Below are positions 2,240-63,094 of a DNA stretch of 64,000 nt, one piece after another. Position 1 is the stretch's first letter; each line of letters starts with the position of its first letter. The stretch is taken from assembly GCA_028286615.1 (NCBI GenBank), contig JAQBRG010000004.1, positions 36,480 through 100,479 of the forward strand, in the 5' to 3' direction. Origin of the DNA: Parcubacteria group bacterium. Lineage in GTDB: Bacteria > Patescibacteriota > Minisyncoccia > Phycocordibacterales > Phycocordibacteraceae. A program made the translations under genes and the position numbers. Under the pieces are notes generated by a model. The model saw nothing but the letters and a program-made list of their open reading frames with translations, did no database searches and was not told the origin of the DNA.

Positions 2240-2275
2240 CCCCGAGAGCGCCACAACGTGTGATCACTCTCGGGG
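2240..2275 (-). terminator. hairpin (ccccgagag/ctctcgggg) followed by a T-tract on the minus strand; overlaps the stop of the 2264..3421 gene and lies just after folA
   Basis: 9-bp perfect stem; the T-run is on the minus-strand side only. Confidence 0.45.
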
Positions 2276-3480: not shown

Positions 3481-3510
3481 ATTAAAAGAAAACCGCTCCT
3501 AGTGGAGCGG
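3481..3510 (-). terminator. rho-independent terminator after the ParB-like gene
   Basis: ccgctcc-tagt-ggagcgg stem with a ttttctttt tract on the minus strand. Confidence 0.5.
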
Positions 3511-45863: not shown

Positions 45864-46595
45864 ATGATCTCTTTCTTCCATACCGTTCTTTACATACCTA
45901 TATATAACCTTCTCATCTTCCTTGTGGACGTTATCCCTGGAGGCGATATTGGCCTCGCTGTTATCGCAGCCACCATCATCGTAAAGGTTGTAATCATGCC
46001 GCTCTCCTTCGCTGCTCTACGCACCTCCCGCGCGGTTAAGGCTATAGAGCCAGAACTCAAGACACTCAAGGAAGAGTACAAGGACGACAAGGAGGGGCTC
46101 GCAAGAGAAACCTTCGCTATCTATAAAAAGTACGGCATCAATCCGTTTGCTGGCATCCTCACTCTTTTCATTCAGTTCCCTATTGTCATCACGCTCTACT
46201 GGGTATTCCGCACCGAATCTCTTCCAGGTGTTGATGCGTCACTTCTCTATTCATTCATTCACGCACCGGACACCGCCTCCCCTCTTTTCCTTGGTCTCAT
46301 TCTTATAACAAGTTCGAGTCTTATTCTTGCAGTACTGGTTGGCATAACTTCATACATTCAAGCAGTGTACGCACTTCCCCTTCCAGCAAAGCCGGAGCCA
46401 GGAGCAAAGCCAAACATGCAGGCAGACATAGGGCGCGCCATGGCACTCCAGATGCGCTACATACTTCCTATTCTCACTGCAGTTATTGCATACGCATCAG
46501 CTGCGCTCGCTCTCTATTTCATAACAAGCAATCTTCTTAGTATCTTCCAGGAATATATTGTTCGTTTGAAGAAACTTCCTACGCCTTCAGTCTAA
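45864..46595 (+). CDS. yidC: YidC/Oxa1-family membrane protein insertase (short form)
   Basis: Five TM segments with a conserved loop; follows rnpA. Confidence 0.8.
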   Translation: MISFFHTVLYIPIYNLLIFLVDVIPGGDIGLAVIAATIIVKVVIMPLSFAALRTSRAVKAIEPELKTLKEEYKDDKEGLARETFAIYKKYGINPFAGILTLFIQFPIVITLYWVFRTESLPGVDASLLYSFIHAPDTASPLFLGLILITSSSLILAVLVGITSYIQAVYALPLPAKPEPGAKPNMQADIGRAMALQMRYILPILTAVIAYASAALALYFITSNLLSIFQEYIVRLKKLPTPSV

Positions 46596-47809
46596 AGGTC
46601 GTACATCCAAAGCGAAGAGTCTGCTTTGTTGGTGAATATAAGCACATCGGACTGCGAGTCGATTGTTAGAGCAACGGCATCAATAGATTCTTTGGCGAGC
46701 TCTGAAGGATCAACAATAAGCGTTGCTACACGAGTATCAAGATCAATACTCCATATTCTGTCGTTAAAGGTACGCGCGCCTTGGTACCACTCGTCTGGAA
46801 GCTTTCCTGTAAGCGCTGTTGGTACACCGCAGTAGATTGCACGGCTGTCGCGACGCCAGACACACTTATCTGCAAGTGTTGAAAGAGGAATTGGTGTAGC
46901 GGTGTGATTCAGAACATCAAGTACTTGCGTGTAGAGTTTGCCGCGATCGGTATAGCTATAAAGTACGTACGCTCCTGAAGGACTTGGCAGTGTCGAGAGT
47001 CCGTTTAGAGGACCAAGTACGCGCGTAAAGGAGCCTGCAGCGTCAACACTGAAGCTGTAGCCTGCCATGTCGCTTGAAGCTTTCGTTGTTGCTAGATAGC
47101 TCGTACCCAAGAAGCCAAGACGAAGTGCTGAAAGCGCAGAAGAGAAAAGAGTGCGTGTGTTGGTGCCATCAAGATTGGAAAGACTTGCAAGAGAGCCAGC
47201 ACTACTTGGAAGAAGTGTAAGAACTGTAGAGGTGCCGCGTACAGATGCTTGAGCAAGGTTCTGTTCTAGGAAGAACCCCCCTTCCCCGTTTGATTGCAGT
47301 GCGTAGGTATCAGTTCGCTCAGAACCGTCAGTTGTACGCTCAAGGAAACGTGCAAAGACACGAGATCCATCGCTTGCCCAAGAAGCTTCTTGAATACCCG
47401 GAAGCGTTTTGTTTGAAAGCCTGGTCTGCACACGCTCATGTGCACGATACGCATATATGTTTCCGCTAGCTCGGTCTATGTAACGCACCTCTACATCTGC
47501 AGGCTTGCTTGGAACAGTGCTGCTGGCTGTCGTGCTGCCAACAACCTCGGGAATATAAATCGCAACCGAACCTTCCGCTACCGGCTTATCCGTTATCTTA
47601 ATAAGATGCGGGGCAACAACCTCCCCTGCTCCATTAATAGCGGTCCCTGAATCTGGTGTTGTAACCGTGGCGTCCCCGCTTGTTCCGAAAGGATTAGCAA
47701 TACTCGGCTCTAGTGTTGCTGCACCATTGGCAAAGAAGAAGAACCAAATACCCACACCGATGCCGATGAGGACGATGATGCTGGCGACGATAATCAGGAT
47801 CCGCTTCAT
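46592..47809 (-). CDS. hypothetical membrane-anchored protein
   Basis: N-terminal TM segment; 405 aa. Confidence 0.45.
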   Translation of the reverse strand: MKRILIIVASIIVLIGIGVGIWFFFFANGAATLEPSIANPFGTSGDATVTTPDSGTAINGAGEVVAPHLIKITDKPVAEGSVAIYIPEVVGSTTASSTVPSKPADVEVRYIDRASGNIYAYRAHERVQTRLSNKTLPGIQEASWASDGSRVFARFLERTTDGSERTDTYALQSNGEGGFFLEQNLAQASVRGTSTVLTLLPSSAGSLASLSNLDGTNTRTLFSSALSALRLGFLGTSYLATTKASSDMAGYSFSVDAAGSFTRVLGPLNGLSTLPSPSGAYVLYSYTDRGKLYTQVLDVLNHTATPIPLSTLADKCVWRRDSRAIYCGVPTALTGKLPDEWYQGARTFNDRIWSIDLDTRVATLIVDPSELAKESIDAVALTIDSQSDVLIFTNKADSSLWMYDL

Positions 47810-47812
47810 AGT

Positions 47813-48724
47813 TTATATTTTGAGAGCTGGGTTGGCGCACACAGGCAGCTTCGAAAGAGTTGCGTAGCTGTCCGCCGGAGTATTTGCCGCGGGACTTCCT
47901 ACAGGAGAACAGGCGCGAGACGAATACTGGATATTGGAAACCTTGGCTTTCTTGCCGTTGTATTCAGAATCGCAGGCCGCTTGAGTTGGAAGTGTGCCTG
48001 TTGAAATCATTACACATGCTTCCTGGCTACGATCTCCTACCTCATAACTCTTGTACATGATGCCGTAGTTGTAAGAGGTCGCCGTCGCTGCCGGAGCAGC
48101 AGGCGTATCTTGTTTGACAGTCGCAGGTGTTGTTTTGTTAACGCCGCAGCAAATCCAACCCGACTGTCCTTTAGGTGCCGGTGCGCAGCAAGAATCAGAA
48201 ACCTTACCCCACCCTTCTCCAGGCAAAGAGCTGCAAGTATTATTTTTTAACTGAGCAACCTTTGCATAATCTACGCACGCGGTTGCGGCGCTTGCTCCAG
48301 CGGGCGAGGTCGTTGTATCAGTAGGAGTATTTTGTGGAAGCTGAAGCTGGTCAATTCCTCCAATCTTAAGCTTCAAGATATCAGGGTTAATTATCGAGAA
48401 AACAATAACCGGAGAAAGGATAAGAAGAAGTCCTATGAGAGAGTCACGAATAAGACCTCGAGCCTGGGTTATTTTCTCTGAATTATCTCCTGCAGTCATC
48501 CACGTAACACCTGCTCGCATAATCTGGAGAACAGCGAGTGTTGCTGCAATTCCAATCAATACCTTATAGAGGTTGTTGAGAAATGCCGGCATCGTATCTA
48601 CATTCCCCGCTCCCTGAAGGAAGGGTGCGTTTGTCAGAGACTTAAAGCCATTCTCTTGTGCAAACGCCACCGCCGGAAGCGCGAAGGCACTTAGTATCAG
48701 GAATGCGTAGAGATGTGATTTCAT
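47813..48724 (-). CDS. TrbC/VirB2-like pilin domain protein with Cys-rich C-terminal extension
   Basis: Signal peptide, then two hydrophobic helices (YKVLIGIAATLAVLQIMRAG ... LIGLLLILSPVIVFSII) as in VirB2/TrbC pilins. An unusual Cys-rich tail of about 190 aa follows. Confidence 0.4.
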   Translation of the reverse strand: MKSHLYAFLILSAFALPAVAFAQENGFKSLTNAPFLQGAGNVDTMPAFLNNLYKVLIGIAATLAVLQIMRAGVTWMTAGDNSEKITQARGLIRDSLIGLLLILSPVIVFSIINPDILKLKIGGIDQLQLPQNTPTDTTTSPAGASAATACVDYAKVAQLKNNTCSSLPGEGWGKVSDSCCAPAPKGQSGWICCGVNKTTPATVKQDTPAAPAATATSYNYGIMYKSYEVGDRSQEACVMISTGTLPTQAACDSEYNGKKAKVSNIQYSSRACSPVGSPAANTPADSYATLSKLPVCANPALKI

Positions 48725-48726
48725 AG

Positions 48727-49707
48727 TTATAGACCAAATATGCCAAGGCCCTTAGACGCACCAAACTTAACAGAGAATCCACCCTGTGCCGTTTGATGGA
48801 AGTCCGGATGCTTTGCCGAGACAGAAACCGCAGAAGTGCCCGCTCCATTTCCGGTTGCACGTACGGTTAGATCTTTGTCTTCTCCGCTCATGCTCCCCCC
48901 AACCGTCCAAGCAATATTTGGAGGAGCTCCGAAGAAGTACGGAACAGCGCGGAAAGTTGTTTCTGTGTCAGCCATAGAATAGGTACCTGAAAGCGCCGCT
49001 CCAAACAAAGGACCCAAGAGAGGATCGTTCCTATATATACGTACGACAGGGTCTGCGGGAGCCACTACAACAGACTGCTCAGCCACAATACTGCTGTCTA
49101 CAGTGCTTACCGTTACCGTAACAACCGTATCTCTGTATCGGACGGGAGCCGTCGCACTTAGAACAGACTTCCCGATGCCGGAAGAAGACTGGAGGATTTG
49201 GTCTCCTAGTCTCCACATGTAGACGAGGCTGCTAGGAGAAAGACGCACGTTTGCATCGTTACGGATATCTGGAATCGCAACTATACGTACTCGTCCTTCG
49301 GAGGCAACCAAACTCGCTCCTTTATAAAACGGGGGGACTGTTGAGGAAGGCTCAAGTATAAGAGATACGTCAGCAGGACGGATAGTTACTTGCTTGGCAT
49401 GACTCTGTCCGTCAGGAGTAATAACCGTAACTAGAATCGTCGTGCGTGTACCTGCGGCCCCAACGCGCACTGCTGCTGCTTGGGTGCCGCTCCCCTTCTG
49501 CACAACAGATCCATTAGCCGATATCGTTACGCTGCTTGAAGGCAGGTCTAGAAGTGTGCTGCCGGGGGTAACGGTGATGGTATCGAAAGGTTTTGGATAC
49601 TGCGGACTAATGCTGACGGTGAGCGGGTCTGCTCCAATTTCCTGTGCATGAATAGGGAGTGCGCCAAAGATAAGTAGTGCGAGAACGAGGAGCGAGAGGC
49701 GCTGCAT
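48727..49707 (-). CDS. secreted hypothetical protein
   Basis: Signal peptide; 326 aa. Confidence 0.45.
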   Translation of the reverse strand: MQRLSLLVLALLIFGALPIHAQEIGADPLTVSISPQYPKPFDTITVTPGSTLLDLPSSSVTISANGSVVQKGSGTQAAAVRVGAAGTRTTILVTVITPDGQSHAKQVTIRPADVSLILEPSSTVPPFYKGASLVASEGRVRIVAIPDIRNDANVRLSPSSLVYMWRLGDQILQSSSGIGKSVLSATAPVRYRDTVVTVTVSTVDSSIVAEQSVVVAPADPVVRIYRNDPLLGPLFGAALSGTYSMADTETTFRAVPYFFGAPPNIAWTVGGSMSGEDKDLTVRATGNGAGTSAVSVSAKHPDFHQTAQGGFSVKFGASKGLGIFGL

Positions 49708-49760
49708 ATAAAGGTAGTATACCGTCTTCTCTTACGTGTTTGTGGTAGAGGCGTGGGTAT

Positions 49761-50240
49761 CTAAGATTCTTCCTCAGAAGTTTCCGAAGGCCTTCTCATC
49801 TGCTGTGCTTGGCGAGCAATCCTACCCGCCTCCATCGCATTGCTTTTTGCTAAGAGTCTTTGTGCCATTCGGGCTGCAGCTCGCGCTTTTATGGGATCCA
49901 TCTCTGCCCCCTTACCCTTTCTATCCTCGCTCCTGCTTTGGGCTATGAGCGCGACGACACCGAGAGTTATCGCAGGAAGCGCATCAATAACAGGAACCAG
50001 TTCGGTTATAACTGACGCCATGCTTATAAGTGCTTTTTTAGCCGCGTTCTGTTTGAAAATGCTCTCACCCAAAAGAGCGAACCAAAGTGCAAATACGATA
50101 GTTGCCAATATAGTAACCAGAAACGTTACTAAAGAACCAATAACGGTAAGAGTAAGTAAAAACTGGATAGCGTCAAAAAGAATCGCGGTACCGATCATGA
50201 ACCCTGCAGCAGTTCCTCCAATTCGGTATTTCTTTTTCAT
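49761..50240 (-). CDS. membrane protein with charged C-terminal tail
   Basis: Three TM segments. Confidence 0.4.
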   Translation of the reverse strand: MKKKYRIGGTAAGFMIGTAILFDAIQFLLTLTVIGSLVTFLVTILATIVFALWFALLGESIFKQNAAKKALISMASVITELVPVIDALPAITLGVVALIAQSRSEDRKGKGAEMDPIKARAAARMAQRLLAKSNAMEAGRIARQAQQMRRPSETSEEES

Positions 50241-50246
50241 GCCAAG

Positions 50247-52067
50247 CTATACGCCCGCAGACTCCTGTCGTTGTTTTTCTTGTTTAATGGCGAGTAGCTG
50301 CGAAGGGTCTGAGGTTATGATCTGATCCTCGGTGTATGACGCAACGATCTTGATAGCCACATGCTTAAGACCCGCAAAGAAAAGTCCCTCCCCCACTCCA
50401 GACTCAAGGAGCAAGAACTTCTCCTCGTCGGTTAGGTTGAATGTTTCCTGCAGAACATTAATAGTTGTCGGAGATTGCTTAAGAAGAAGCTGCATCGAAG
50501 AGTTTGTAAGAATCGGTTTGCCGTATGGACTACGCAAGAAGTCCTCAACGTCCTGAGTTATGGTTGCGAGTCCGAGGTAGTACTTACGTCCGCGCTTAGC
50601 AAGACTGTAGAGGAATGACGCAGTGTCTTCTGCTTTCATCATCCACCACGCCTCGTCAATGATCATAAGGCGCTTCTTGAGTTCGTGACGGACTTCGTTC
50701 CAGATGAAGTGCATGATGATATACATCGCTACAGGCTTGAGCTCGTCTTCCATGTCGCGCACTGAGAACACAACAAACTGTTTCTTAATATCAACGTTTG
50801 TTGGCTGGTTAAGGAACCCAGACCAAGTACCGTGCGTGTATTTTGAGAGCCTAGTTACTAGGGATTCTGAGCCCTCCATACCTGAAAGGACATTCTCAAA
50901 GTCTGAAAGAAGAGGAGGCTCTACACCTGTGAAGTCGTTGTCGCCGGTTATGTCTTTAAGTGCGTACGTCTCTGTTACTGCGCGATCTACAATGGCGTCC
51001 TCCTCTGGAGAAAGACCCCCAAGCATGATGCGGAAGAGTCCCACGAGGTTAATGATGTTTGAACGGAGAATGTCAGCCGGCTCCTCGTCTTCTTTAACAG
51101 GAGGCAGGTCAAACGGATTGATATGGTGTTCGCTTGAAAGAGAAATGTTGAAGGTACGTCCGCCTGCTGCTTCAGCGAGTTGGGTGTATTCGTCTTCAGG
51201 GTCTATAACAATAACGTCGGTATCGAACATGAGGGAGCGAAGAATCTCGAGCTTAACAGCATAAGACTTTCCCGAACCAGATTTAGCAAACACAACGGAG
51301 TTGTAGTTCTCAAGCGAGAAGCGATCGAAGAGAATGAGTGAAGAGTTGTGGCGGTTAATGCCGTAGAGAATGCCATGGTCGCTCGTGAGGTCGAAAGATA
51401 CGAATGGGAAGATAGATGAAAGCGGAGACGAGTTCATTTTGCTGTTAACAGCAAGTTCGTCGAGCGCAAGAGGAAGTGTTGAACGGAATCCTTGTTCTTG
51501 CTGGAAGAGTGCGGGCTTGGTGTATACAAGCTTCGCGTCGAGAATACCTCGTATCTCCCCTTCCACCTTGTCGAGTATCTCCTTAGAGTCTCCGTATATG
51601 GTTATGTACAGACCAACTTCGAAGAGTCTTTCCTGTGCTTGCTGGAGCTGGTCACGAAGGTTCTCAAGATCTTGGTATGCAGTATCAAGCATCGGGTCAC
51701 GCACAAGCCCCTTCTCTTCTCGTGTTTGTATCTGGCTTTGAATTTCGGCAACTTTCTTCTGGAAGCCACGAAGTGCGGGGCCTGTTTCAAGCGGATGAAT
51801 GAAGATGGCAACATCGAATACCTTGTCGAGGTTAATTATTGGCGTAAACCAACCATCAGCAAGGAAGCGCGGGTATGAAATGGTGTAGAAAGTACGGGAA
51901 AACTTCTCCCCGAGCTCTATCTCTTTAGATCCAATCTTAAGAGCCGCAGGAGCTATGGCGTCAGCAAGCTGAAGCTCCCCTTCCGCGTATATATCTCGAG
52001 GAAGTACAGCAGCCACTCTTGGCTCTGCTTCATCTTTTTTCTTACCGAGGAAATCAAGGAGTGCCAT
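50247..52067 (-). CDS. VirB4/TrbE-like T4SS ATPase, C-terminal ATPase portion
   Basis: Walker A VFAKSGSGKSY, Walker B MIIDEAWWMM, GRKYYLGLATITQD motif C. Starts 1 codon after an in-frame TAA that ends the upstream fragment. Confidence 0.65.
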   Translation of the reverse strand: MALLDFLGKKKDEAEPRVAAVLPRDIYAEGELQLADAIAPAALKIGSKEIELGEKFSRTFYTISYPRFLADGWFTPIINLDKVFDVAIFIHPLETGPALRGFQKKVAEIQSQIQTREEKGLVRDPMLDTAYQDLENLRDQLQQAQERLFEVGLYITIYGDSKEILDKVEGEIRGILDAKLVYTKPALFQQEQGFRSTLPLALDELAVNSKMNSSPLSSIFPFVSFDLTSDHGILYGINRHNSSLILFDRFSLENYNSVVFAKSGSGKSYAVKLEILRSLMFDTDVIVIDPEDEYTQLAEAAGGRTFNISLSSEHHINPFDLPPVKEDEEPADILRSNIINLVGLFRIMLGGLSPEEDAIVDRAVTETYALKDITGDNDFTGVEPPLLSDFENVLSGMEGSESLVTRLSKYTHGTWSGFLNQPTNVDIKKQFVVFSVRDMEDELKPVAMYIIMHFIWNEVRHELKKRLMIIDEAWWMMKAEDTASFLYSLAKRGRKYYLGLATITQDVEDFLRSPYGKPILTNSSMQLLLKQSPTTINVLQETFNLTDEEKFLLLESGVGEGLFFAGLKHVAIKIVASYTEDQIITSDPSQLLAIKQEKQRQESAGV

Positions 52068-52070
52068 ATC

Positions 52071-52703
52071 TTAGGAATTTGTTAAAGGAATAGGAGTTTC
52101 TACATCTCCCAGATTGAACGAATGGTACAAAAGTTCGATTATCTCTTCAGTACCAAGCGGAACTGCACGTACTCCTGCCGAAGCGAGACCTCCAGCGGCT
52201 AGTGCCATACGTTGCTCGAGCTGCACGCGGTGTTCGTTAAATGAGTCCTCCCCAGGTGTTTCTGAAGTGCTCTTCCTTCCAATGAAAGGAATATTACCCG
52301 CAACTTCGTTCGCTATTGCGGGAGCGTATGGGATAACGAGATAGAAAATCTTCGTCATGATGTCAGTAGTTTCAAGAAAGCTCTTGATGAACTGCATGTA
52401 TTCGCGAAGCTGTAGACGCATAAGATCAGAGGTCTGAAACGCCATGCGCTCCTGCAAGAGTGCAAGATACGGACGAATATCCATGCGACGTGAATGGGCA
52501 ACGATTTCAACAGAGAAATCGAGCGTGTTAAGGAAGTTCTGGAACCCGCCAACAATGGCTCGCTGCTCGTCTTCAGACTTAAGCGCGAAGTTAACGGAAG
52601 AACACATAAGAATGCCTCTATACCCGTCGTCTTTAAGAATAACTACGCCATTGCGTACTTCTTTAACCGGCACGAATGCTTGTGTTGCTTTAGGTGCAGC
52701 CAT
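52071..52703 (-). CDS. VirB4-like N-terminal domain fragment
   Basis: VPVKEVRNGVVILKDDGYRGILMCSSVNFALKSEDEQRAIVGGFQNFLNTL matches the conserved N-terminal block of VirB4/TrbE. Same reading frame as 50247..52067. Confidence 0.5.
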   Translation of the reverse strand: MAAPKATQAFVPVKEVRNGVVILKDDGYRGILMCSSVNFALKSEDEQRAIVGGFQNFLNTLDFSVEIVAHSRRMDIRPYLALLQERMAFQTSDLMRLQLREYMQFIKSFLETTDIMTKIFYLVIPYAPAIANEVAGNIPFIGRKSTSETPGEDSFNEHRVQLEQRMALAAGGLASAGVRAVPLGTEEIIELLYHSFNLGDVETPIPLTNS

Positions 52704-52704
52704 A

Positions 52705-53121
52705 TTACTCAGTTGGGGTTTGTTGATCCTTAATGTCTAGAGACCAAGCTAATTCCTCAAGCTTCCCGCGGGTTAGGCCAAGCTTTTGGCGAACCGGTTC
52801 AGCAGCAGGAGTTGCTACAGGCATTGAAGATTTGTTTGATTGCATTTCTTTTTTCCAAAGGTAGAGGCGACCTCCTATGTAGTATTTAAAGCCTGCCTCA
52901 AGAATGTCCGCAAAGGTCTTGTTGTTAATCTTGTAGAACGCGAGAGCACCAGCAAGAGCTGCTACGGGAATTGCGAGAATAATACCAAGAAGACGTGGAA
53001 GATAGAGGACAAGAACGGCACAAAGCCCTGCTCCGCCAGCTATGTAAATGAATTGCTTCAACGTAAACGGGCCGAATATTTTGTCTTCAACCTCGATAAA
53101 TTGAGGAACTTGGTACTCCAT
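52705..53121 (-). CDS. PrgI/VirB3-like small membrane protein
   Basis: PQFIEVEDKIFGPFTLKQFIYIAG followed by TM helices, immediately upstream of the VirB4-like gene. Confidence 0.45.
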   Translation of the reverse strand: MEYQVPQFIEVEDKIFGPFTLKQFIYIAGGAGLCAVLVLYLPRLLGIILAIPVAALAGALAFYKINNKTFADILEAGFKYYIGGRLYLWKKEMQSNKSSMPVATPAAEPVRQKLGLTRGKLEELAWSLDIKDQQTPTE

Positions 53122-53166
53122 TGCTGATAAGTATACCAGCTACTTATTACTTCTATTATGAATTCC

Positions 53167-54066
53167 CTACTCAACAGGCTCTCTGTAAGGATCAGTGCCG
53201 TAGTTTTTCATATCAGGAGCCTTCCTGAATGGAGAAGCGGAAGGCACTGGAGTATGAGGTAGATTTAAAGGAATCGGCACGTATTCTTCTTGGAACGCAC
53301 GTTTTGGAGCCTCCGGTACTTCTGGTGTTGTGTTTGCTAGTGGATTGATACCATTTTTAAGCATCTCCATGTCTTTTGCCATGGTGCGCATTTCCCTGTG
53401 TTCAGGTTGCGACACGGAGACGTCAGGTGGCTGTGTAGTAGGAGTCTCTGCTTTTGGAATTGGCGCGGACCACGTTACCGGTACTTCGACAGGCTTGCCT
53501 TCAGGCACGAGCTCTGAAGACCCAGGAAGTGTTACTGGCAAAGCCGGAGCAGGCTGAATAATTGGTGCTAGCGCCTGATGCGGCGCTGAATTTATAACGT
53601 TAATTGGCGAAGGAATTGATGACGCAGGCACAGGAAGTGCGACGGGAGCCGGTGCGACTGGTAGCGATGGGGGCGGAACAAGCGCAGGGACTGGCAAAGG
53701 ATCAGGTTTTTGAGGCTGTGTCTGAATAGGTTGTGGAGGCTGCGGCTCACGAACACCGTCTCTTTCGGCTTTCCTTAATGGCGTAAAGACTTCTCGGTTC
53801 ACGTCGGCGACAATTGCTGTAACTGTAGCAGGGTCCAACTGCATCGCATTGAGAGACTCAACAAAGGTTTCAGGAGTCTCCTGTCCTAAAAGCATTAGCA
53901 ATAGCTCACGTTCCAGTGCCCCGCCCTGGTCAATGTGGAGAGAGTACCTCTCCATAATGGCGTGTGCCGTATCAGGCAGATCGTTAAGAATGAAGTCGCG
54001 CACAGGGAACGGCACCTTAGCTATAAGGCTTGAGATGCTTTGTTCTAGAGCCAGATTCTCATCCAT
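53167..54066 (-). CDS. proline-rich hypothetical protein
   Basis: Long proline-rich low-complexity middle region. Confidence 0.4.
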   Translation of the reverse strand: MDENLALEQSISSLIAKVPFPVRDFILNDLPDTAHAIMERYSLHIDQGGALERELLLMLLGQETPETFVESLNAMQLDPATVTAIVADVNREVFTPLRKAERDGVREPQPPQPIQTQPQKPDPLPVPALVPPPSLPVAPAPVALPVPASSIPSPINVINSAPHQALAPIIQPAPALPVTLPGSSELVPEGKPVEVPVTWSAPIPKAETPTTQPPDVSVSQPEHREMRTMAKDMEMLKNGINPLANTTPEVPEAPKRAFQEEYVPIPLNLPHTPVPSASPFRKAPDMKNYGTDPYREPVE

Positions 54067-54071
54067 ACTTT

Positions 54072-56534
54072 CTAAGTGTGTGGAGCAGCACCATGAGCGT
54101 CACCTCCTGCTGGTGCGCCGGCAGGAGCGTGCGCCGGCGCTGCTGGCGCGTCTTCCTCATCATCCTTTTCAGCTGCCTTCTTGATTTTTGCCAGAGCTTG
54201 ATCAAGATCGCTACCCTTGCCCTTACGAATATTCGCCGCTGCTTCATGGTCGGCATGGTTTCCAACCGATCCAGGAAGGTATACATTTCCATGCAGGCCT
54301 TCAAGGTATGTATCAGTCTTCTGTTGCTCAGCTCGATTGCTCCATGCCTTTAACCTGACTTCAAGCTCTTTCTGTTGTGCTGCCAAACGCTTACCATCAG
54401 CGTCTCCTTCTATAATCTCGTCACCGATCTTTACGTCAGCACCATTCAAACGATCGTACTCAGTTGTTCGTCGCTTGAGTTCCTCACGTGCACGCTCAAG
54501 ACCCGCCTTATCGTTTGCAAGACGTGCTTTCTGCACCTTTACACGTTGCTCCTCAATAAGGTTTAGCTGATCGGCCAAATGCTCCGCGCGCCGCTTCTTA
54601 ACTTCAATTAGCTCCTCCTCTACCTCGGTTGCAACGCCTCGCTGCTTCTCGCTTGGTTTGAGGGTCTTCTTTAGGAAGTCCTCTCGGTCCTTAACTGCCT
54701 TCTCCTCAATACCATGGAAACCGTGTGCCGCAGTCTTGTTTGCTTGGCCAAAATCCAACTTAACTTTTCCATTTTTTCCAGCAGCCGTTGCCAGATTTCG
54801 TGCGCTATAGCTCGCAGTAGCCCCCTTGTTTGCGAAATTGTATGCAAGTCTTGCCTGTCCCGGATGATTCTGTGCCCACTCAGAAGTTCTAATGCGCTGC
54901 GCCACTGAATTTGATGCTGCTCCAAGAGTTCGTCTCCCAAGGAATCCATAGGTACCAAGAGCGAGACCTCCTGCTGTTTTCGTTGCATAACCTGCCCCTG
55001 CAGCCCCCAGCTTGGTTGCAGCCATTAAAGACGCAACCATGAATCCAATAACAATAAGAAATATCAATACAACCTGCATATTTCCTGCCACACCATTTCC
55101 TTGCAGAAGAGCATCTGCAAGCGAGGCTTTTCCTTGCATGAGCCCCTCAGTCAACTTGAGACTGATGAAAATGAGAAGGAGATATACAGGAGCAAAGAAT
55201 GACTGAGAAATTAGGGCCTTCCACCAGCTTTTCGCCATTTCTGAAAAGGCGGGTATTGCCATACCCGCGAATCCAATAGGAGATGTGACCATCAAGAGAG
55301 ACAGAACAACCACACGAATGACGAGCATAATCGCGCCCGCCAGGAGTACAACGGCTGTAATAGTTACGAAAATACTCAGACATAGGAGAAAGATTGTATA
55401 TGAGTAGGGCTGCTGGCTTATATTTTTCCACTCATCTCCGAAAGCCGAGCCAATAGTTGAAAGACTAAAAATCTTATCCATGCCCGCGGCATGCATTACG
55501 GCTCCCGCAATACCAACTTGAGAGCAGGCCTCGGGACTTTGGCCCGCAATACAATTCTGTCCAGCTTGTGCGGTAAACACCGACGCAAAGCCATTTGCCA
55601 CATCTATAACAGCCTGTGATGCAAACAAGCTAAAGTTAAGAAGAACAGCAAAAATAATGAGGCCGGGGAGCGCTTTCTTTGCGGTATACCCCTCAACAGC
55701 ACCTGTATTCAAGATGGTTGCAATGCCCATAAATATGAAACCAAAGAGCAGCACAATGTTTCCAATGTCTCGAAGCACTCCCCATGCAATAAGCGTACCC
55801 GCTGAACTTCCGAAGTACGTTCCAAATTCAAACACGGTTCGTATAACTACCCAGTTAAATACAGCTCCTGAGATAGCTAGAAGTATGCCCGAGATACCCA
55901 GAACAATAAGTGCCAGGAAAGAAAAGATGACGCCTGGAATGTTTAAGACACACTGAACAAGATTTGTTATGGAACAACTCTTAAACGCGGCAGCTTGAGT
56001 CTCCGCGCCAGCCAGGTCTTTATCAGCCGCCACCCCACTTGAAGTTTCAACCAAAGGCGTGCCTCCCGTTGCCTGACTTCTGCCGATTGTTTTTCCGGTC
56101 GCGTCATAGAATTGATAACTACTGCTCTCACCAGATACAGCGAGACGACTCTTGTCTGAAGCTACGATATTACATGTGCCTTTGCGAAGAGTTCCCTGAC
56201 TGTCAATCTCAGTTGCTGCGACACAGGTAACACCATAATTCTTGCCACCTGCCGTCAATGTTTTATTGCAGTTCTTTTGAAACGACTGGCTTAGAAGTTC
56301 TGTTGCGGGTGATGTCTTAGTCTCACCGAAACATCCAGACACTAAACTGTCGATATCAGAATTTTGAAGACTAGCAATGATCGCTGTTGTCGACTGGGCG
56401 TGGGCTGCCTGAGGAATTAAAGAGACTGTTCCAAAGAACGAAAATACTACGATAACGCACATGCCAGTAAAGGCACTTTTAAAAAGTGCTTTCGCGTCCA
56501 CTCGTTCGTGTTGAGTACGTCGGAGTGTCTGCAT
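54072..56534 (-). CDS. VirB6/TrbL-like polytopic membrane protein with C-terminal coiled-coil/charged domain
   Basis: Signal peptide, large extracytoplasmic region, then many TM helices, then a charged coiled-coil tail; 820 aa. Confidence 0.45.
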   Translation of the reverse strand: MQTLRRTQHERVDAKALFKSAFTGMCVIVVFSFFGTVSLIPQAAHAQSTTAIIASLQNSDIDSLVSGCFGETKTSPATELLSQSFQKNCNKTLTAGGKNYGVTCVAATEIDSQGTLRKGTCNIVASDKSRLAVSGESSSYQFYDATGKTIGRSQATGGTPLVETSSGVAADKDLAGAETQAAAFKSCSITNLVQCVLNIPGVIFSFLALIVLGISGILLAISGAVFNWVVIRTVFEFGTYFGSSAGTLIAWGVLRDIGNIVLLFGFIFMGIATILNTGAVEGYTAKKALPGLIIFAVLLNFSLFASQAVIDVANGFASVFTAQAGQNCIAGQSPEACSQVGIAGAVMHAAGMDKIFSLSTIGSAFGDEWKNISQQPYSYTIFLLCLSIFVTITAVVLLAGAIMLVIRVVVLSLLMVTSPIGFAGMAIPAFSEMAKSWWKALISQSFFAPVYLLLIFISLKLTEGLMQGKASLADALLQGNGVAGNMQVVLIFLIVIGFMVASLMAATKLGAAGAGYATKTAGGLALGTYGFLGRRTLGAASNSVAQRIRTSEWAQNHPGQARLAYNFANKGATASYSARNLATAAGKNGKVKLDFGQANKTAAHGFHGIEEKAVKDREDFLKKTLKPSEKQRGVATEVEEELIEVKKRRAEHLADQLNLIEEQRVKVQKARLANDKAGLERAREELKRRTTEYDRLNGADVKIGDEIIEGDADGKRLAAQQKELEVRLKAWSNRAEQQKTDTYLEGLHGNVYLPGSVGNHADHEAAANIRKGKGSDLDQALAKIKKAAEKDDEEDAPAAPAHAPAGAPAGGDAHGAAPHT

Positions 56535-56538
56535 ATAG

Positions 56539-57939
56539 CTAGTTTATAACGCAGCTTACCGAAAGCTGGCTCAGCTGAGATAGCAACGAATCAGTACCCG
56601 CTGATGCTTGTGATTCTGACTCTGCAACTTCAGTAGGTGTTGGGAGAATGTCTGAGTTCGGCCCGTCAAAACCCTGGAAGTCTTCAGACAATTTGTTTAG
56701 ATCAGCAAGCTTGCCACCAGTTGCAATTGCGCTTTTCGCTTGAGATTGAAGCTTGCCAAGTTCGGCCGTGGCATTAGCTGCTTTAACTAGTGCGGCAGAA
56801 GCGCTATTGAGTGCGGGCTGCACAATGGTACTTATCGCCTGCGTGTTGTTTCGACTAGAACATGCACTAAGTGCCTGCTGCCCCGCCGCTTGTATACGCT
56901 GCCAGTTACTTTGGTAATTACTTACCTGACCCAATTCTTCAGTAATTGTTTGAAGGAATGCCTGAGAAAGACTGGCACTCTGCGTATTCGATGCGTTTGT
57001 AAGGTTGTCTGCGTATGAACTGCCTCCTCCTGTAGAAGGTTTGGATAACCCTGCAATGCCACCTTTGCTAAAGGCTTCATTTAGCAGATTGAGTATAGGA
57101 GCACTCGCAAACTCACTGACCTCATCAGCACTGACGGTCTTGTCTATACCCGCACCGAGAGTATGTACAAGGGTGTCGTGAAGTACTGATCCGTTAATTA
57201 TGATTGGCGAATTGGGACACTCCTTGGATGAACCTAAGGAGACATCTCCTGAAGATCCACACGTCCCGTGGTATGAACCGATTCCCTGTCCCCAGTTAAT
57301 TTCTGTAAGCCTGTTCCCCTCCGCGTTTCCTACGCTGCCTTCAAACGCTTGCTGGGTAAGAAGTGTAGAACCATAAGGATTATTCTGTGGATTCATAAAG
57401 CTCGAGAATAGAGCATCAAGGCCTCCTTTGGAGAAGTCTCCGTTTGTGAATGCGGCCGGGTCTGAACTGACTTGATCAAGGGTAAAAGGATTTTGGTTAA
57501 AGACACCGCCTGCACCTGTAGAGCGGTAACGATACTCTCGGAGGTTTTGGCTTAAGTCGTCTCTCCATGGAGATTTAACACTGTTACTCGATTCAAGCTC
57601 TTTCAAAAACGCCTCAGCTTGCGCGTCCCCAACAGAAAGCATGGTCTTGTTAATGTCAGTTACAAAAGCAGGAGAACCATCAAAACCAGAGTTCACAAAG
57701 TTAATCATGCTCTTGTTAAGAGACTGAAGAGCAGAAATACTTTGAATCCAGGCAAGACGGTCGCTTGTAAGCTCTTTAAAAATACCTTTATTTTCAAGAG
57801 CCGCACTCAGTGCATTCTTTACAAGGTTAACTGGGTCAAGAACTGTCTGATACGCCTCTGTTCGTGCGGGCATGGCTGTTAACCCTATACCTAATGCAAG
57901 GGTGAAGACCAAACAAGTTTTTAAGAAGGAGATTTTCAT
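56539..57939 (-). CDS. secreted hypothetical protein
   Basis: Signal peptide; 466 aa. Confidence 0.45.
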   Translation of the reverse strand: MKISFLKTCLVFTLALGIGLTAMPARTEAYQTVLDPVNLVKNALSAALENKGIFKELTSDRLAWIQSISALQSLNKSMINFVNSGFDGSPAFVTDINKTMLSVGDAQAEAFLKELESSNSVKSPWRDDLSQNLREYRYRSTGAGGVFNQNPFTLDQVSSDPAAFTNGDFSKGGLDALFSSFMNPQNNPYGSTLLTQQAFEGSVGNAEGNRLTEINWGQGIGSYHGTCGSSGDVSLGSSKECPNSPIIINGSVLHDTLVHTLGAGIDKTVSADEVSEFASAPILNLLNEAFSKGGIAGLSKPSTGGGSSYADNLTNASNTQSASLSQAFLQTITEELGQVSNYQSNWQRIQAAGQQALSACSSRNNTQAISTIVQPALNSASAALVKAANATAELGKLQSQAKSAIATGGKLADLNKLSEDFQGFDGPNSDILPTPTEVAESESQASAGTDSLLSQLSQLSVSCVIN

Positions 57940-58970
57940 GGTTGTTCATTAGCGACGGCGTCTGCTGCACGTTTAGCAACTTGAACAATAGATGCGCCAG
58001 AAGTTCCGTCTGGGATGTTTGCGCCAACTGCATCAAATACTCCGTTAAGGTTTGCGAATGCGCGTCCAAGATTCGCTCCCCTCTCTTGGTACATTCCAAT
58101 TCCGAAGACTGCTAGAACAGGATCAGTTTTTGTTGCAGCCATGTCAGCCGTTGTCTCACTCATATGCATAAGCGCATTCGCAATTGAAAGATGGGCGTTG
58201 CGTGCTTCGGAAGGAACAGAAAGTTTCATAGCTGCTCGTGCGATGGCTGCGTATGATTTGCTAATTGCAAAAAGTTTCGTGATGGCAGACGAGTCATTCT
58301 TGCTAACCGCGTCTGAGAAATATTCGAGATCCGTTTTGTCCGTAGGGACTGTGTATGTTGCAAAGACCTGCTCAAGATTTGCCGCATAGGTTGCAAGCGC
58401 ATCTGCGCCGCTTCCTCCTGCAACGATGTCCGAAGTGCTATACGTATCCGTTTCAATTTCTTCTGCTTTAAAACTCTGAAGTCCTTGTTCTACGAATGCG
58501 CTTAACTCGGCGGGAGTTGGAGGTGTTGGGCCACGAGTCTTTAGATATTGCGTAAGGAGGCTACGAGCGAATCTGTCTGTAACAGTCGTTGGACCCGCAT
58601 TTACGCCAGGAACGGGGGTATTAACAAGTGAAGTGGAGGTCGCGGTTAATACTTTTGGTTTAACCAGCCCTTGGGAAACAGCGTCTCCATCCTTAGTTCC
58701 CTTCCGCACAGATTCAGGATTGTTTGGATCTGTTCCGTACAACGCTTCTTGCCAATCTGGAAGCTGGTCTCCATCAGTATCTTTTGCTGCGTAACTCTTA
58801 AGGAGTTCTGCAGAAGATTCTGCATCAGCTACATTTGTCTTTCCAAGAAATGGAATTGGTCCCGATGTTGCGTATGCTCCGCCAACAAGGACAACCGCAA
58901 TTACTGATGCGATGATTATGCTAACGGTGCGAGGAGAAGAACCAGCCATATGTTTCCATAATAATAGCAC
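57936..58970 (-). CDS. membrane-anchored hypothetical protein
   Basis: N-terminal TM segment; 344 aa. Confidence 0.45.
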   Translation of the reverse strand: MLLLWKHMAGSSPRTVSIIIASVIAVVLVGGAYATSGPIPFLGKTNVADAESSAELLKSYAAKDTDGDQLPDWQEALYGTDPNNPESVRKGTKDGDAVSQGLVKPKVLTATSTSLVNTPVPGVNAGPTTVTDRFARSLLTQYLKTRGPTPPTPAELSAFVEQGLQSFKAEEIETDTYSTSDIVAGGSGADALATYAANLEQVFATYTVPTDKTDLEYFSDAVSKNDSSAITKLFAISKSYAAIARAAMKLSVPSEARNAHLSIANALMHMSETTADMAATKTDPVLAVFGIGMYQERGANLGRAFANLNGVFDAVGANIPDGTSGASIVQVAKRAADAVANEQP

Positions 58971-59012: not shown

Positions 59013-59786
59013 TTAGATTTTCTTTGCAAGCGCGCTCCAAGCAGCAAGAGAAAGATCTTCAGCACGAGCTTTTGGCATTAGCCCAACTTCTTCGAACGCT
59101 AGATATATTTTCTCGAGTGGAGCGAGGATTTCGAGGTTACGCGCGAGGAGTTTTCGCTTATGAGCAAACCCAGCCTTAAGTACTGCAAAAAAGCGTACTT
59201 CCTCGGCAGAGGACTCAAAAAGATCCCCAGAGATGTTTTGAATTGAAAGAACTGCAGAATCTACGTTAGGTGCGGGTATAAAAGCTCCGCAAGGGACAGT
59301 AAAGGCGTATTTGGGAGTCCCATACGCCTTAACTGAGAGTGAAAGAAGGCTTTCTTTCTCGCTTCGGGCAATACGCACCGCCACTTCCTTCTGCACCAGG
59401 AGCGTCATGGAGGTTGGTTTATGGCTGGCAGTCAGGAACTGGCGAATAATCTCTCCAGTTATGTAGTACGGGATGTTTGCTACTAAAACGTAGGGTTTTG
59501 CTAGTGATGTCGGATCAAAAGACCGCACGTCTTGCTGTATAAGTACCAGTCTCCCCTCTTTAATTTCCCCAGCAAAGGTCTCCTCTAGCTGAGGTATCAG
59601 CTCGTTATCTGCCTCAATGGCGATAACTTTCGCTGCTTTCTTGAGCAAGGCACGCGTTAACATTCCGGTTCCAGGGCCTATTTCAAGGACCGTAGCGTTT
59701 TCTGGGAGTTTTGCAGCCTCAACAATGCGCTCCCCTGTCTGGGCGTGCATGAGAAAGTTCTGTCCGAGAGATTTCTTTGCGTACAT
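59013..59786 (-). CDS. rsmA: 16S rRNA (adenine1518/1519-N6)-dimethyltransferase
   Basis: QNFL ... VLEIGPGTGMLT ... NIPYYIT. Confidence 0.9.
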   Translation of the reverse strand: MYAKKSLGQNFLMHAQTGERIVEAAKLPENATVLEIGPGTGMLTRALLKKAAKVIAIEADNELIPQLEETFAGEIKEGRLVLIQQDVRSFDPTSLAKPYVLVANIPYYITGEIIRQFLTASHKPTSMTLLVQKEVAVRIARSEKESLLSLSVKAYGTPKYAFTVPCGAFIPAPNVDSAVLSIQNISGDLFESSAEEVRFFAVLKAGFAHKRKLLARNLEILAPLEKIYLAFEEVGLMPKARAEDLSLAAWSALAKKI

Positions 59787-59791
59787 AGTAT

Positions 59792-61738
59792 CTATATATG
59801 TATAACCTGTTCCCCGTCCGTATCGTCCCCATAGCTAACTTCCATGAGGCTGTCATCAATATCAGCTATAAAAGCAGAGGGCTCTGAGAAGAAATCCGTA
59901 CCATATATACGTCGAATGCGAGCGAGCGTTAGAATAAGCCGTTTCTTAGCTCTTGTAACAGCTACATAGAACAATCTACGCTCCTCTTCCTCGTCTCTCT
60001 CCTCGTTTCCCATGCCCTCATGCGGGAAAAGTCCTTGTTCTAGGCCAGATACGAAAACAGTGTCGAATTCGAGCCCTTTCGCGGCATGAACCGTCATAAG
60101 AGTAACGCCTGTTTTGGTTTTGTCGCGATCTAGTTCGTCCTGGTCTCCGGCAAGTGCCGTATCAGCAAGGAAATTGGCTATTCCCTCCTCTCCAACGAGC
60201 GTATCGTACCGGCTGGCTAGGGTTGCGAGCTCCTTAACGTTTTCTAGGCGTTCCTGGTCTTCTTCCCCTCCCTTTGCAAGGGCATCTCCCATACCGCTTC
60301 GCTCGATAACCAAACGAACAAAGGCTGAAGGAATCATTTCCTTCATTTCTTCGTGTAGTCCCGCGACAACCGCTTCAAATGCTTCAACCTTTAGACGAGC
60401 TGCTGCCGGCAACCCGTCCTTTTGCCCTGCCGCAATCTTTCCAAGGGTAACTTTCCCGATGCCTCGAGAAGGAGATTGCACAGCACGCATGCGATCTGAT
60501 TCGCGTGCAGGATCAAGCGCTAAACGAACCCACGAGAGCACATCCTTAACTTCTTTTCGGTCCAAGAAGCGTGTGCCTAGAAGTTTGTACGGCACTCCCC
60601 CATGCAAGAATGCTTCTTCAATAGCGCGTGACTGGAAGTTTGTTCTATACAGCACTGCTATTTCTTCTGGAGGCGTTCCATTTCGCATGGCTCTCATTGC
60701 CGTACGAGCAATCCAAGTCGCTTCAGCTTCAGCAGTATCAGCAACGTACAAACGTATCTTCTCCCCGTCTGGATTGCTTGTTACCGAATGCTTGTCTTTA
60801 CGATTCCTATTCTTCTCAATTATAGAGTTGGCGGCATCAACAATTGTTTTTGTTGAACGATAGTTATGAGCAAGAACAATGGTTTTTGCTTGAGGATAGG
60901 TCTTTTCGAAAGCGAGAAGGTTCTCGATTGTTGCTCCGCGCCACGTGTAAATTGTTTGATCAATATCCCCCACGACGAACAAATTCTGATGCACGTTCGC
61001 AAGCAGACCTGTAAAACGAGCCTGCAATTCATTGGTGTCCTGGTATTCGTCTACGTGGATGTGGCTGTAAAGCTGCTCTGCTTCTGCGCGGATGTCGGCG
61101 TGTTCTGAAAGAAGTCGTACAGGAAGACAAATGAGATCGTCGAAGTCTAAAGACTTTTCAGCCTTCAGAGTTTTCTCGTATCGAAGCCATACTTCTGCAG
61201 CAATGCGCGAACGGAAACTATCTCTTCCATGTTTCTCATGGAATTCCTGCGCTGTCTTCCCTTCCCCTTTGGCTTTACTAATGCGGCCAAGAATAGCGCG
61301 CGGAGGCATTTCTTTGGGATCTACATCAAGTGCTTTCAATGCTTCGCGGACTGCTCGTTCTGAATCGTCCCGGTCGTAGATAGTGAAATAACGAGGCACT
61401 CCGATGCGAGATCCGTATTTTTCAAGAATCACGCGGCCTAATCCATGGAACGTTGCAACGAGCGGCAGCGGACTGTCGCCCAAGCGCAGAGCAAGACGCT
61501 CTCGCATCTCCCGGGCAGCTTTGTTGGTGAAGGTAACTGCAAGGATTCGATGTGCGGGCACCCCCTCTTTGATGAGATGGTAGATACGAGTAGTTAGAAC
61601 GCGAGTTTTTCCGGACCCAGCTCCAGCAAGGACAGAAATTGGACCGTCTGTGGTTAAGACCGCTTCTCGTTGCGCCTCATTTAATCCTTCAAGGTGCTGC
61701 ATGACTTGCCAAGTATACGCGAATGACGCTCTCCACAC
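59792..61738 (-). CDS. pcrA: UvrD/PcrA-family ATP-dependent DNA helicase
   Basis: AGAGSGKTRVLT Walker A, UvrD motifs. Confidence 0.9.
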   Translation of the reverse strand: MWRASFAYTWQVMQHLEGLNEAQREAVLTTDGPISVLAGAGSGKTRVLTTRIYHLIKEGVPAHRILAVTFTNKAAREMRERLALRLGDSPLPLVATFHGLGRVILEKYGSRIGVPRYFTIYDRDDSERAVREALKALDVDPKEMPPRAILGRISKAKGEGKTAQEFHEKHGRDSFRSRIAAEVWLRYEKTLKAEKSLDFDDLICLPVRLLSEHADIRAEAEQLYSHIHVDEYQDTNELQARFTGLLANVHQNLFVVGDIDQTIYTWRGATIENLLAFEKTYPQAKTIVLAHNYRSTKTIVDAANSIIEKNRNRKDKHSVTSNPDGEKIRLYVADTAEAEATWIARTAMRAMRNGTPPEEIAVLYRTNFQSRAIEEAFLHGGVPYKLLGTRFLDRKEVKDVLSWVRLALDPARESDRMRAVQSPSRGIGKVTLGKIAAGQKDGLPAAARLKVEAFEAVVAGLHEEMKEMIPSAFVRLVIERSGMGDALAKGGEEDQERLENVKELATLASRYDTLVGEEGIANFLADTALAGDQDELDRDKTKTGVTLMTVHAAKGLEFDTVFVSGLEQGLFPHEGMGNEERDEEEERRLFYVAVTRAKKRLILTLARIRRIYGTDFFSEPSAFIADIDDSLMEVSYGDDTDGEQVIHI

Positions 61739-63037: not shown

Positions 63038-63094
63038 GCTTTGGTAAAGCAAAACGGCCCTCTAGAGAGGGCCGTTTTGCTTTACCTTCCAATA

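Follow-up and report, generated by a model that had tools for sequence, protein, structure and literature searches.

Does a cluster of eleven genes resembling a type IV secretion system (T4SS), located close to the replication genes of a Parcubacteria group bacterium, belong to a conjugative element or to a machine of another kind? The cluster was found in a stretch of 64,000 nucleotides from assembly GCA_028286615.1 (contig JAQBRG010000004.1, positions 36,480 to 100,479 of the forward strand), which was analysed at its full length and is hereafter called the window. The module consists of eleven consecutive minus-strand open reading frames (ORFs), all of them intact, that fill positions 46592-58970 with intergenic gaps of -4 to 53 nt, and these are here numbered g1 to g11 from the rsmA side to the yidC side. 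An earlier note made from the sequence alone had proposed that the eleven genes between yidC and rsmA form a T4SS, and this is borne out by the ORFs and by matches of their products to hidden Markov models (HMMs) of T4SS components. The locus is very likely a chromosomal, origin-proximal T4SS that belongs to the Patescibacteria clade, goes back to the MPF_FATA class of monoderm bacteria and resides in a Parcubacteria/Paceibacteria genome, and we have still less doubt about its identity with the known T4SS of Patescibacteria.

The motor and its partners

A VirB4-family ATPase is what identifies a T4SS of any class, and this component is supplied by g7 (50247-52067, minus strand, 606 aa), the motor and hallmark of the system. 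The protein scores 376 bits against NF045971, the model of the CD1110 family (cut-off 325 bits, E=3e-112, profile positions 183-733 of 752), and matches PF19044 at E=4.4e-26, which makes it a VirB4 of the MPF_FATA or CD1110 type. The sequences GSGKS (Walker A) and IIDEAW (Walker B) are readable in the translation and the nucleotide-binding motifs are thus intact. Its presumed membrane partner is g5 (52705-53121, minus strand, 138 aa), a small PrgI/VirB3-like protein with two hydrophobic helices predicted by hydropathy, which matches PF12666 with 42.7 bits (cut-off 27, E=8.2e-11), has a median identity of 66% in 66 related loci and, by analogy, would anchor VirB4 to the membrane. The two genes were previously taken to be directly adjacent, which is not so, since a separate gene of 210 codons, g6 (52071-52703, minus strand), is interposed and PrgI accordingly sits one gene upstream of VirB4. 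The product of g6 is a homologue of the N-terminal domain of VirB4 and aligns with some 100 residues at the N-terminal end of VirB4 profiles, namely positions 103-233 of NF045975 (E=2.9e-7) and positions 4-105 of NF045971 (E=3.3e-4). It reaches only E=0.051 with the TrsD model NF041427, and its designation as TrsD-like is based on the VirB4 N-terminus matches together with a precomputed match to the TraC-like family PF26593. A PrgI/VirB3 protein encoded next to virB4, here with one gene between, and a stand-alone TrsD are both features expected of the MPF_FATA class and of the Patescibacteria systems, and TrsD has indeed been described as the most abundant VirB4-associated protein in Patescibacteria (Quinonero-Coronel et al., PMC12102498).

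In the window the TrsD-like gene and virB4 share a reading frame and are separated by TAA GAT ATG (52065-52073), and the in-frame TAA was therefore considered as a sign of a pseudogene, of read-through or of recoding. This was rejected, since a stop followed by a new ATG, mostly within 12 nt, occurs in 66 of the 66 related loci where both genes were found, and since the two frames differ in 34 of them. The remaining 32 junctions keep the frame, near half of the loci against the one third expected by chance, an excess that relatedness of the genomes may explain. The commonest form is a frame-keeping spacer of 3 nt.

The VirB6 platform and the pilin

The largest protein of the module, g3 (54072-56534, minus strand, 820 aa), was assigned as a polytopic membrane protein of the VirB6/TrbL type via its orthologues, nine out of 34 of which match the TrbL family PF04610. 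Two orthologues that were checked singly, P0005 and P0058 (51% and 45% identical to g3 of the window), score 27.3 and 32.4 bits respectively, which in both cases passes the gathering score of 25.9, and the matches span positions 11-213 of the 215 in the profile. Precomputed matches to PF04610 and PF19590 are likewise on record for homologues of g3. According to hydropathy the protein has an N-terminal transmembrane (TM) helix or signal, a Cys-containing ectodomain of ~150 aa, ~6-7 TM helices at 189-506 and a charged hydrophilic C-terminal tail of ~310 aa, in agreement with the topology of VirB6/TrbL proteins, which have at least five TM helices and optionally large hydrophilic domains, and this layout corresponds to the 'extended VirB6' architecture described in a recent review (PMC12857230). 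The matches of its orthologues and its topology taken together support the view that g3 is an extended VirB6/TrbL protein. Profile searches with the g3 family did not find any VirB6 in the PDB nor pick out TrbL of R751, and the family profiles of g2, g9 and g11 likewise gave nothing significant among PDB sequences. A VirB6-like protein had been expected downstream of VirB4, yet g3 lies upstream of PrgI, and it is the 159-aa g8 that follows VirB4. For g8 itself there was no support either as a VirB6-like protein or as a second pilin.

The pilin of the system is g10 (47813-48724, minus strand, 303 aa), which passes the threshold of the T4SS_pilin family PF18895 (29.5 bits against 26.6), whereas its match to TrbC falls below the cut-off (22.5 bits against 27.9). 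Its hydrophobic segments at 4-22, 48-73 and 94-112, as predicted by hydropathy, represent a signal peptide and two hydrophobic helices within an N-terminal part of ~125 aa, so that profile, signal peptide and helices all agree with a VirB2-type pilin, and no second pilin was found in the window. Comparison of 54 family members reveals conservation of the N-terminal ~125 aa only, beyond which the sequences are barely alignable and the C-terminal part ranges from 29 to 289 aa. This part contains between 0 and 18 cysteines, and the number is even in every one of the 54 sequences; in the window the C-terminal domain comprises 178 aa with 10 Cys (47813-48346). These observations suggest that the C-terminal extension is a disulfide-rich variable surface domain. 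PrgI/VirB3, VirB4 and the VirB2 pilin, all of which had been proposed before, are thus each recognised beyond a curated HMM cut-off, and the proposed VirB6/TrbL-like component is recovered through the orthologues described above. The failure of HMMs to support VirB4, VirB6 or VirB2, which the earlier note had named as the result that would speak against a T4SS, was consequently not what the searches returned.

The pilin gene is flanked by two further genes for exported or membrane-anchored proteins. The product of g9 (48727-49707, minus strand, 326 aa) has a signal peptide, three predicted tandem beta-sandwich domains similar to immunoglobulin (Ig) or fibronectin type III (FN3) domains and an invariant C-terminal GIFGL, and in a structure model (pLDDT 82.6) the signal peptide is indeed followed by the three Ig/FN3-like sandwiches. 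A role as an envelope or pilus-associated structural part suits g9 better than that of a translocated substrate, because the protein is conserved and its position syntenic. The product of g11 (46592-47809, minus strand, 405 aa) has an N-terminal TM anchor and a conserved extracytoplasmic domain. No Pfam family was found for the window protein or for the 45 family members scanned, and the only hit of its family profile among PDB sequences, TolB at E=0.25, is not significant.

In one sub-lineage the module ends after g8, and the trio of g9, g10 and g11 does not occur at that place. Locus L042 (15806-19951), where g8 is followed by a GDSL lipase, rpsL and rpsG, shows this directly, and the same arrangement of the module was deduced from missing tblastn matches in L043, L045, L048 and L068. 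Since the module of this sub-lineage stops after g8, the three genes appear to constitute a separable unit.

Conservation and synteny

The eleven proteins and those of the flanking genes were compared by tblastn across 76 loci, 74 of which came from a scan of one genome per species and two from contig look-ups. Gene order and orientation are retained in 75 of them, with the M23/LysM peptidase, UvrD and RsmA genes on one side, g1 to g11 in the middle and those of YidC, RnpA and DnaA on the other, so that the synteny check across candidate phyla radiation (CPR) genomes proposed earlier came out in favour of a colinear locus. The motor is the best conserved part, with median identities of 86% for VirB4 (64 loci), 68% for TrsD and 66% for PrgI, and is followed within the module by g9 (51%), g11 (51%, 53 loci), the pilin g10 (43%) and VirB6 (g3, 42%), while g1 and g8 (both 39%), g4 (35%) and g2 (31%) are the least conserved. 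The corresponding values for the flanking genes are 81% for DnaA (at partial coverage), 71% for UvrD, 66% for RsmA and 56% for YidC. Judged by these identities, the constraint on the VirB4 motor exceeds that on neighbouring housekeeping genes, and the surface-exposed parts evolve fast. Furthermore, the colinearity in 75 of 76 loci and the fact that VirB4 is more conserved than UvrD, RsmA and YidC let us conclude that the locus is a vertically inherited core machine and not a mobile element. The GC content of the module (0.47-0.50) falls within the range across the window (0.46-0.54) and there is no compositional anomaly.

The taxon-labelled homologues of the VirB6 family and the syntenic loci are assigned to Patescibacteria, Paceibacterota or Parcubacteria, apart from those labelled 'Saccharibacteria' and one labelled 'Bacillota'. 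The latter, L025 (JBLNCF010000007.1), is a metagenome-assembled genome (MAG) with a complete locus of the Paceibacteria type, the VirB4 of which is 85% identical to that of the window, and a locus of this type is likewise carried by many TPA assemblies titled 'uncultured Candidatus Saccharibacteria bacterium'. These labels look like mislabelling or mis-binning and not like a real taxonomic spread.

Conjugation functions in the window

A conjugative element would be expected to encode a relaxase, a type IV coupling protein (T4CP) and, if it is integrative, an integrase with recognisable boundaries, and no relaxase, T4CP or integrase was found within the 64-kb window, the scope for which all absences of T4CP, relaxase, VirB11 and integrase reported here hold. 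Outside the module 20 ORFs, comprising every ORF of at least 345 aa and several shorter ones, were scanned against Pfam, and the remaining small ORFs were covered by phmmer only. The Pfam scan revealed no T4CP, relaxase, VirB11 or integrase family among the 20 ORFs, which matched housekeeping or type IV pilus families (Pol I, a Mur ligase, PBP1, RuvB, PilM and PilB with an MshEN domain) or nothing at all. In addition, phmmer searches of all 821 ORFs of the window with TrwB (T4CP) and TrwC (relaxase) of R388 and with IntI1 returned nothing, and the VirB11 query, TrwD of R388, matched only the PilB-type pilus ATPase at 31936-33612; as a positive control, TrwK found the VirB4 protein g7 at E=8.5e-07. 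The outer-membrane complex of VirB7, VirB9 and VirB10 was likewise not detected, as is expected for a monoderm. The earlier claim that coupling protein, VirB11, relaxase and integrase are all missing can thus be upheld for the window, and the view that the module is a chromosomal apparatus and not a conjugative element gains support from the synteny, the base composition, the absences within the window and previous work (PMC12102498, PMC10633639).

Relation to known systems

The T4SS of Patescibacteria has been described to comprise VirB4, TrsD, PrgI, VirB6 and VirB2-like pilins without a relaxase, and in Paceibacteria it sits near dnaA, dnaN, rnpA and ksgA (PMC12102498). In Ca. Southlakia epibionticum, a member of the Saccharibacteria where its counterpart is SEML1_0006-0019, the T4SS including its pilins was found by transposon sequencing (Tn-seq) to be essential for epibiotic growth (Wang et al., Cell 2023, PMC10633639). 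Few other machines have been shown to be indispensable to CPR bacteria for living as epibionts. The locus in the window shares with these systems a VirB4 with a separate TrsD-like gene, PrgI/VirB3, VirB6, a VirB2-type pilin, the lack of a relaxase and T4CP in cis and a chromosomal position near dnaA, dnaN, rnpA and ksgA (rsmA), and its local order VirB6 ... PrgI-TrsD-VirB4 recurs in the gene table of Southlakia. It differs from the Southlakia locus in having a single pilin, the C-terminal domain of which is long, hypervariable and Cys-rich, as opposed to an array of about six short pilins, and in that no NTF2-like (VirB8-like) protein was recognised in the module. Arrays of two to eleven short pilin genes have been reported mainly from Saccharimonadia and Microgenomatia (PMC12102498). 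The Paceibacteria-specific accessory proteins g1, g2, g4, g8, g9 and g11 were not found to be discussed in the portions of Wang et al. and Quinonero-Coronel et al. available to us. All the same, the system as such is already known (Wang et al. 2023; Quinonero-Coronel et al. 2025) and the locus does not represent a new kind of system, but a clean and complete Paceibacteria example of it with eleven conserved genes.

Among conjugative systems the closest relationship is with the MPF_FATA T4SSs of monoderms (the CD1110-type system of C. difficile CTn2, Prg/Pcf of pCF10 and Trs of pGO1), in that the CD1110 family is the best VirB4 profile and PrgI and TrsD have homologues in the module. Unlike these systems, the module lacks a relaxase, a T4CP (PcfC/VirD4), a PrgK-type hydrolase and a PrgB adhesin, is a core chromosomal locus as opposed to a mobile one, and includes a VirB2-type pilin, which those systems are without. 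A 2025 FEMS review singles out the Patescibacteria T4SS as the one T4SS of monoderms that is likely to assemble a pilus of the conjugative type (PMC12857230).

Several points nonetheless weigh against these conclusions. The g3 protein of the window itself has no Pfam match and reaches no profile threshold, six of the eleven module proteins are without an assigned function, and no sequence-family match to a VirB8 (NTF2-like) or VirB1 component was found among the eleven. Furthermore, the attribution to the Patescibacteria clade is drawn from the best-matching profile, the taxonomy of homologues and synteny rather than from a VirB4 tree. Finally, a T4CP gene may lie in another part of the genome, and indeed VirD4 homologues occur in most Patescibacteria genomes, usually far from virB4 (PMC12102498).

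A possible VirB5/TrbJ-like protein

The second gene of the module, g2 (56539-57939, minus strand, 466 aa), encodes a fast-evolving protein with a signal peptide that is predicted to be all-helical, and it immediately precedes the VirB6 gene, in the same way as trbJ precedes trbL on R751 and trwJ precedes trwI on R388. The mature N-terminus of g2 (57780-57870) resembles a TrbJ/VirB5 motif, PVIDxTNLxQNxxSA, which reads ANAGLPVIDVTNLVQNTVSA in the orthologue of locus L028 (8504-10045), VQAGIPVIDGTNLSQNIMTA in TrbJ of R751 and EAYQTVLDPVNLVKNALSA in g2 of the window; some orthologues carry the motif in a form nearly identical to that of R751 TrbJ, and in over half of the orthologues it is degenerate. 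Weak matches to three different TrbJ (VirB5) models were obtained for seven of 38 g2 homologues (best E=1.8e-5), and three of the 38 match DUF4141, one of them above the gathering score. All of these matches lie within the end of the signal peptide and the first mature helix, and a full-length match to a VirB5/TrbJ profile failed, the similarity being limited to residues ~13-60 with 24 bits against cut-offs of 100-286. Alignment of the g2 family with a nine-sequence TrbJ alignment by hhalign gave P=1e-4 to 3e-4 and a probability of 40-56% over 32 columns only, whereas hhalign of family profiles against single proteins of R751 or R388 proved insensitive. An hmmsearch of all ORFs of R751 and R388 with the family profiles returned nothing significant, TrbJ ranking second for the g2 profile at E=1.6. 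The structure model of g2 is all-helical and of moderate confidence (pLDDT 67 overall, >85 in the C-terminal bundle), and Foldseek found no match to it in the PDB at E<0.5.

The module resembles the pilus modules of P-type and VirB-type systems of diderm plasmids (TrbC-TrbJ-TrbK-TrbL of R751 and TrwL-TrwJ-Eex-TrwI of R388) in its VirB2-type pilin and in that the gene directly upstream of TrbL/VirB6 encodes a secreted helical protein, the mature N-terminus of which is TrbJ-like. It differs from them in that g2 is twice the size of TrbJ/VirB5 and similar over ~32-45 residues only, in lacking an entry-exclusion gene and VirB7-11, and in the different cell envelope. The notion that g2 is a VirB5/TrbJ-like stalk or tip protein is accordingly suggestive and not proven.

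Function and alternative explanations

A non-conjugative role in host interaction, by which the machine would make contact with the host cell and transfer macromolecules between the two partners, appears probable to us. The TrsD/VirB4 motor, anchored by PrgI, would energise assembly at the VirB6 platform of an extracellular pilus or stalk built from the g10 pilin, with the hypervariable Cys-rich domain exposed on the surface. The helical secreted protein g2 might sit at the base or tip in the fashion of VirB5/TrbJ, g1, g9 and g11 could be envelope-spanning or scaffolding parts, and the structure as a whole would serve contact-dependent exchange with the host cell and not conjugation. In a cultivated relative, tubular structures that are possibly T4SS pili penetrate the host, and host RNA is taken up (bioRxiv 10.64898/2026.06.21.733656). 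Whether the transport is directed inwards is a matter on which we stop somewhat short of an even judgement, import of host material as opposed to export of effectors being a hypothesis that we take from the literature.

A more detailed reading, which we offer tentatively and which is rather unlikely to hold in every part, is that the module encodes a complete stalk and pilus of the VirB2/VirB5/VirB6 type in a monoderm, in which g2 would be an enlarged and highly diverged VirB5/TrbJ on an extended VirB6, the C-terminal domain of the pilin would determine host specificity, g9, g10 and g11 would form a pilus sub-module, and the resulting tube would penetrate the host for the uptake of macromolecules. 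The locus adds three testable details to the known system, namely that VirB6 may have a VirB5-like partner, that the pilin would display a variable domain on its surface and that the pilus genes would form a separable sub-module. These points could inform structural or genetic studies as soon as a pair of Paceibacteria symbiont and host can be handled experimentally.

A T4SS without T4CP and relaxase may alternatively be a competence-type system that, like ComB of Helicobacter or Ced of archaea, imports environmental or host DNA for nucleotide salvage or recombination. ComB of H. pylori and Ced of Sulfolobales likewise need neither a relaxase nor a coupling protein and import rather than export, the VirB4 of the window is weakly similar to two ATPases of archaeal DNA import, CedB (E=1.2e-9, 37 bits) and CedD (E=6e-4), and import of DNA or other macromolecules has been proposed for Patescibacteria (PMC12102498). 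The CedB score does not however come near the cut-off of 700 and reflects the P-loop domain that the proteins share, and it is the conjugative CD1110 family that is matched best, so that there is no specific sequence relationship with these systems, from which the component set also differs; VirB7, VirB9 and VirB10 of the ComB type are missing. Furthermore, a comEC deletion in Southlakia is viable although competence is lost, while the T4SS is essential, and its essential role is therefore not ComEC-dependent DNA uptake. On balance we consider a dedicated DNA-uptake system improbable.

We would judge no differently the alternative that the machine exports protein effectors and that g2 and g9 are substrates or free adhesins delivered to the host, as the earlier note had suggested for these two proteins. 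Both have signal peptides, g2 moreover evolves fast (median 31%) and its distant homologues bear additional discoidin and Ig-like binding domains, and protein export was deemed possible by Wang et al. (PMC10633639). The signal peptides are however of the Sec type, which implies that g2 and g9 cross the membrane without the T4SS and which is typical of pilus and machine parts such as VirB2 and VirB5, whereas the substrates of a T4SS are as a rule picked up in the cytoplasm by a T4CP, of which there is none in the window. In addition, both proteins occupy fixed syntenic positions, g9 is well conserved (median 51%), and g2 has a TrbJ/VirB5-like N-terminus and adjoins VirB6, so that a role as substrates is less likely than one as parts of the machine or pilus. 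The structure predictions recommended for the two proteins gave three Ig/FN3-like domains for g9 and, less firmly, the helical fold of g2.

That the locus is a decayed integrative and conjugative element (ICE) which has lost relaxase, coupling protein and integrase is suggested by the VirB4, PrgI and TrsD families, which are those of conjugative elements of Firmicutes, but the same eleven genes in the same order with the same housekeeping flanks in 75 of 76 loci lead us to reject it as hardly conceivable, and it is likewise in conflict with the intact ORFs, with VirB4 being the most conserved gene of the neighbourhood, with the lack of a compositional anomaly and with the fact that no integrase or relaxase was found in the window and no tRNA gene at the boundaries, where direct repeats were not searched for.

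Other accessory proteins

The first gene of the module, g1 (57936-58970, minus strand, 344 aa), encodes a protein with a single N-terminal TM helix (16-34), a Ca-binding repeat of the TSP3 type and a C-terminal domain without family assignment. The repeat, AKDTDxDGLPDWQEALYGTDPxNP, is invariant in the family, and TSP3_bac is matched by the window protein at E=5.7e-4 and by 22 of 25 family members scanned, the best at E=3.5e-9. The gene was found in 69 related loci by tblastn (median identity 39%), and since Met8 is nearly invariant among the orthologues translation probably starts at the ATG at 58949 and not at the GTG at 58970, giving a protein of 337 aa. The product of g4 (53167-54066, minus strand, 299 aa) is soluble, having neither TM helices nor a signal peptide, and consists of a conserved N-terminal domain of ~100 aa, a linker rich in proline (17.7% Pro) and, at the C-terminus, the invariant motif KEYGxDPYREP; the gene occurs at the same position in 51 loci. 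Directly after VirB4, g8 (49761-50240, minus strand, 159 aa) encodes a small polytopic membrane protein with ~3 TM helices and a charged C-terminal tail, the position of which is conserved and the sequence poorly so (42 loci, median 39%). No Pfam family was found for members of the g4 and g8 families.

Neighbouring genes

The module is bordered on the g11 side by yidC (45864-46595, plus strand; PF02096, E=2e-38), beyond which lie rnpA, dnaA and dnaN, and on the g1 side by rsmA/ksgA (59013-59786, minus strand; PF00398, E=1.6e-47), beyond which lie genes for a UvrD/PcrA-type helicase and an M23/LysM peptidase. The helicase and RsmA genes (59013-61738) are co-directional with the module and just upstream of it, with gaps of 5 nt and ~42-63 nt, their placement is syntenic in nearly all related loci, and transcription together with the T4SS genes is possible. 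Some Gram-positive conjugative elements employ PcrA as their helicase. A scan of 46-62.5 kb for promoters and terminators was uninformative, in that promoter-like sites were fewer than the shuffled expectation and terminator-like sites about equal to it.

The gene of the M23 peptidase with LysM domains (61910-63037, plus strand) is located three genes from the module and is syntenic with it in 62 loci. By analogy with the VirB1-like proteins bearing M23/LysM domains noted in PMC12102498, it may be a candidate for the enzyme that opens the cell wall for the T4SS. Its 3' end is overlapped by a borderline Rfam match to STnc70, an enterobacterial small RNA (sRNA), at 62941-63085 (plus strand; 42 bits against a gathering score of 40), which is probably a false positive in this organism; apart from this match and tRNAs, Rfam found nothing across the window.

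The g3, g9 and g2 proteins of the window have entries as hypothetical proteins in a MAG named 'Parcubacteria group bacterium' (JWN64_554/555), and an exact look-up of its VirB4 in the contig collection returned no record. Two adjacent large ORFs further away, at 2264-3421 (minus strand, 385 aa) and 3499-4764 (minus strand, 421 aa), matched no Pfam family at E<0.01. The window finally harbours a second surface machine in the form of type IV pilus genes, those of PilM (18376-19464, minus strand) and of a PilB-type ATPase with an MshEN domain (31936-33612, plus strand), and the type IV pilus is likewise essential in Saccharibacteria.

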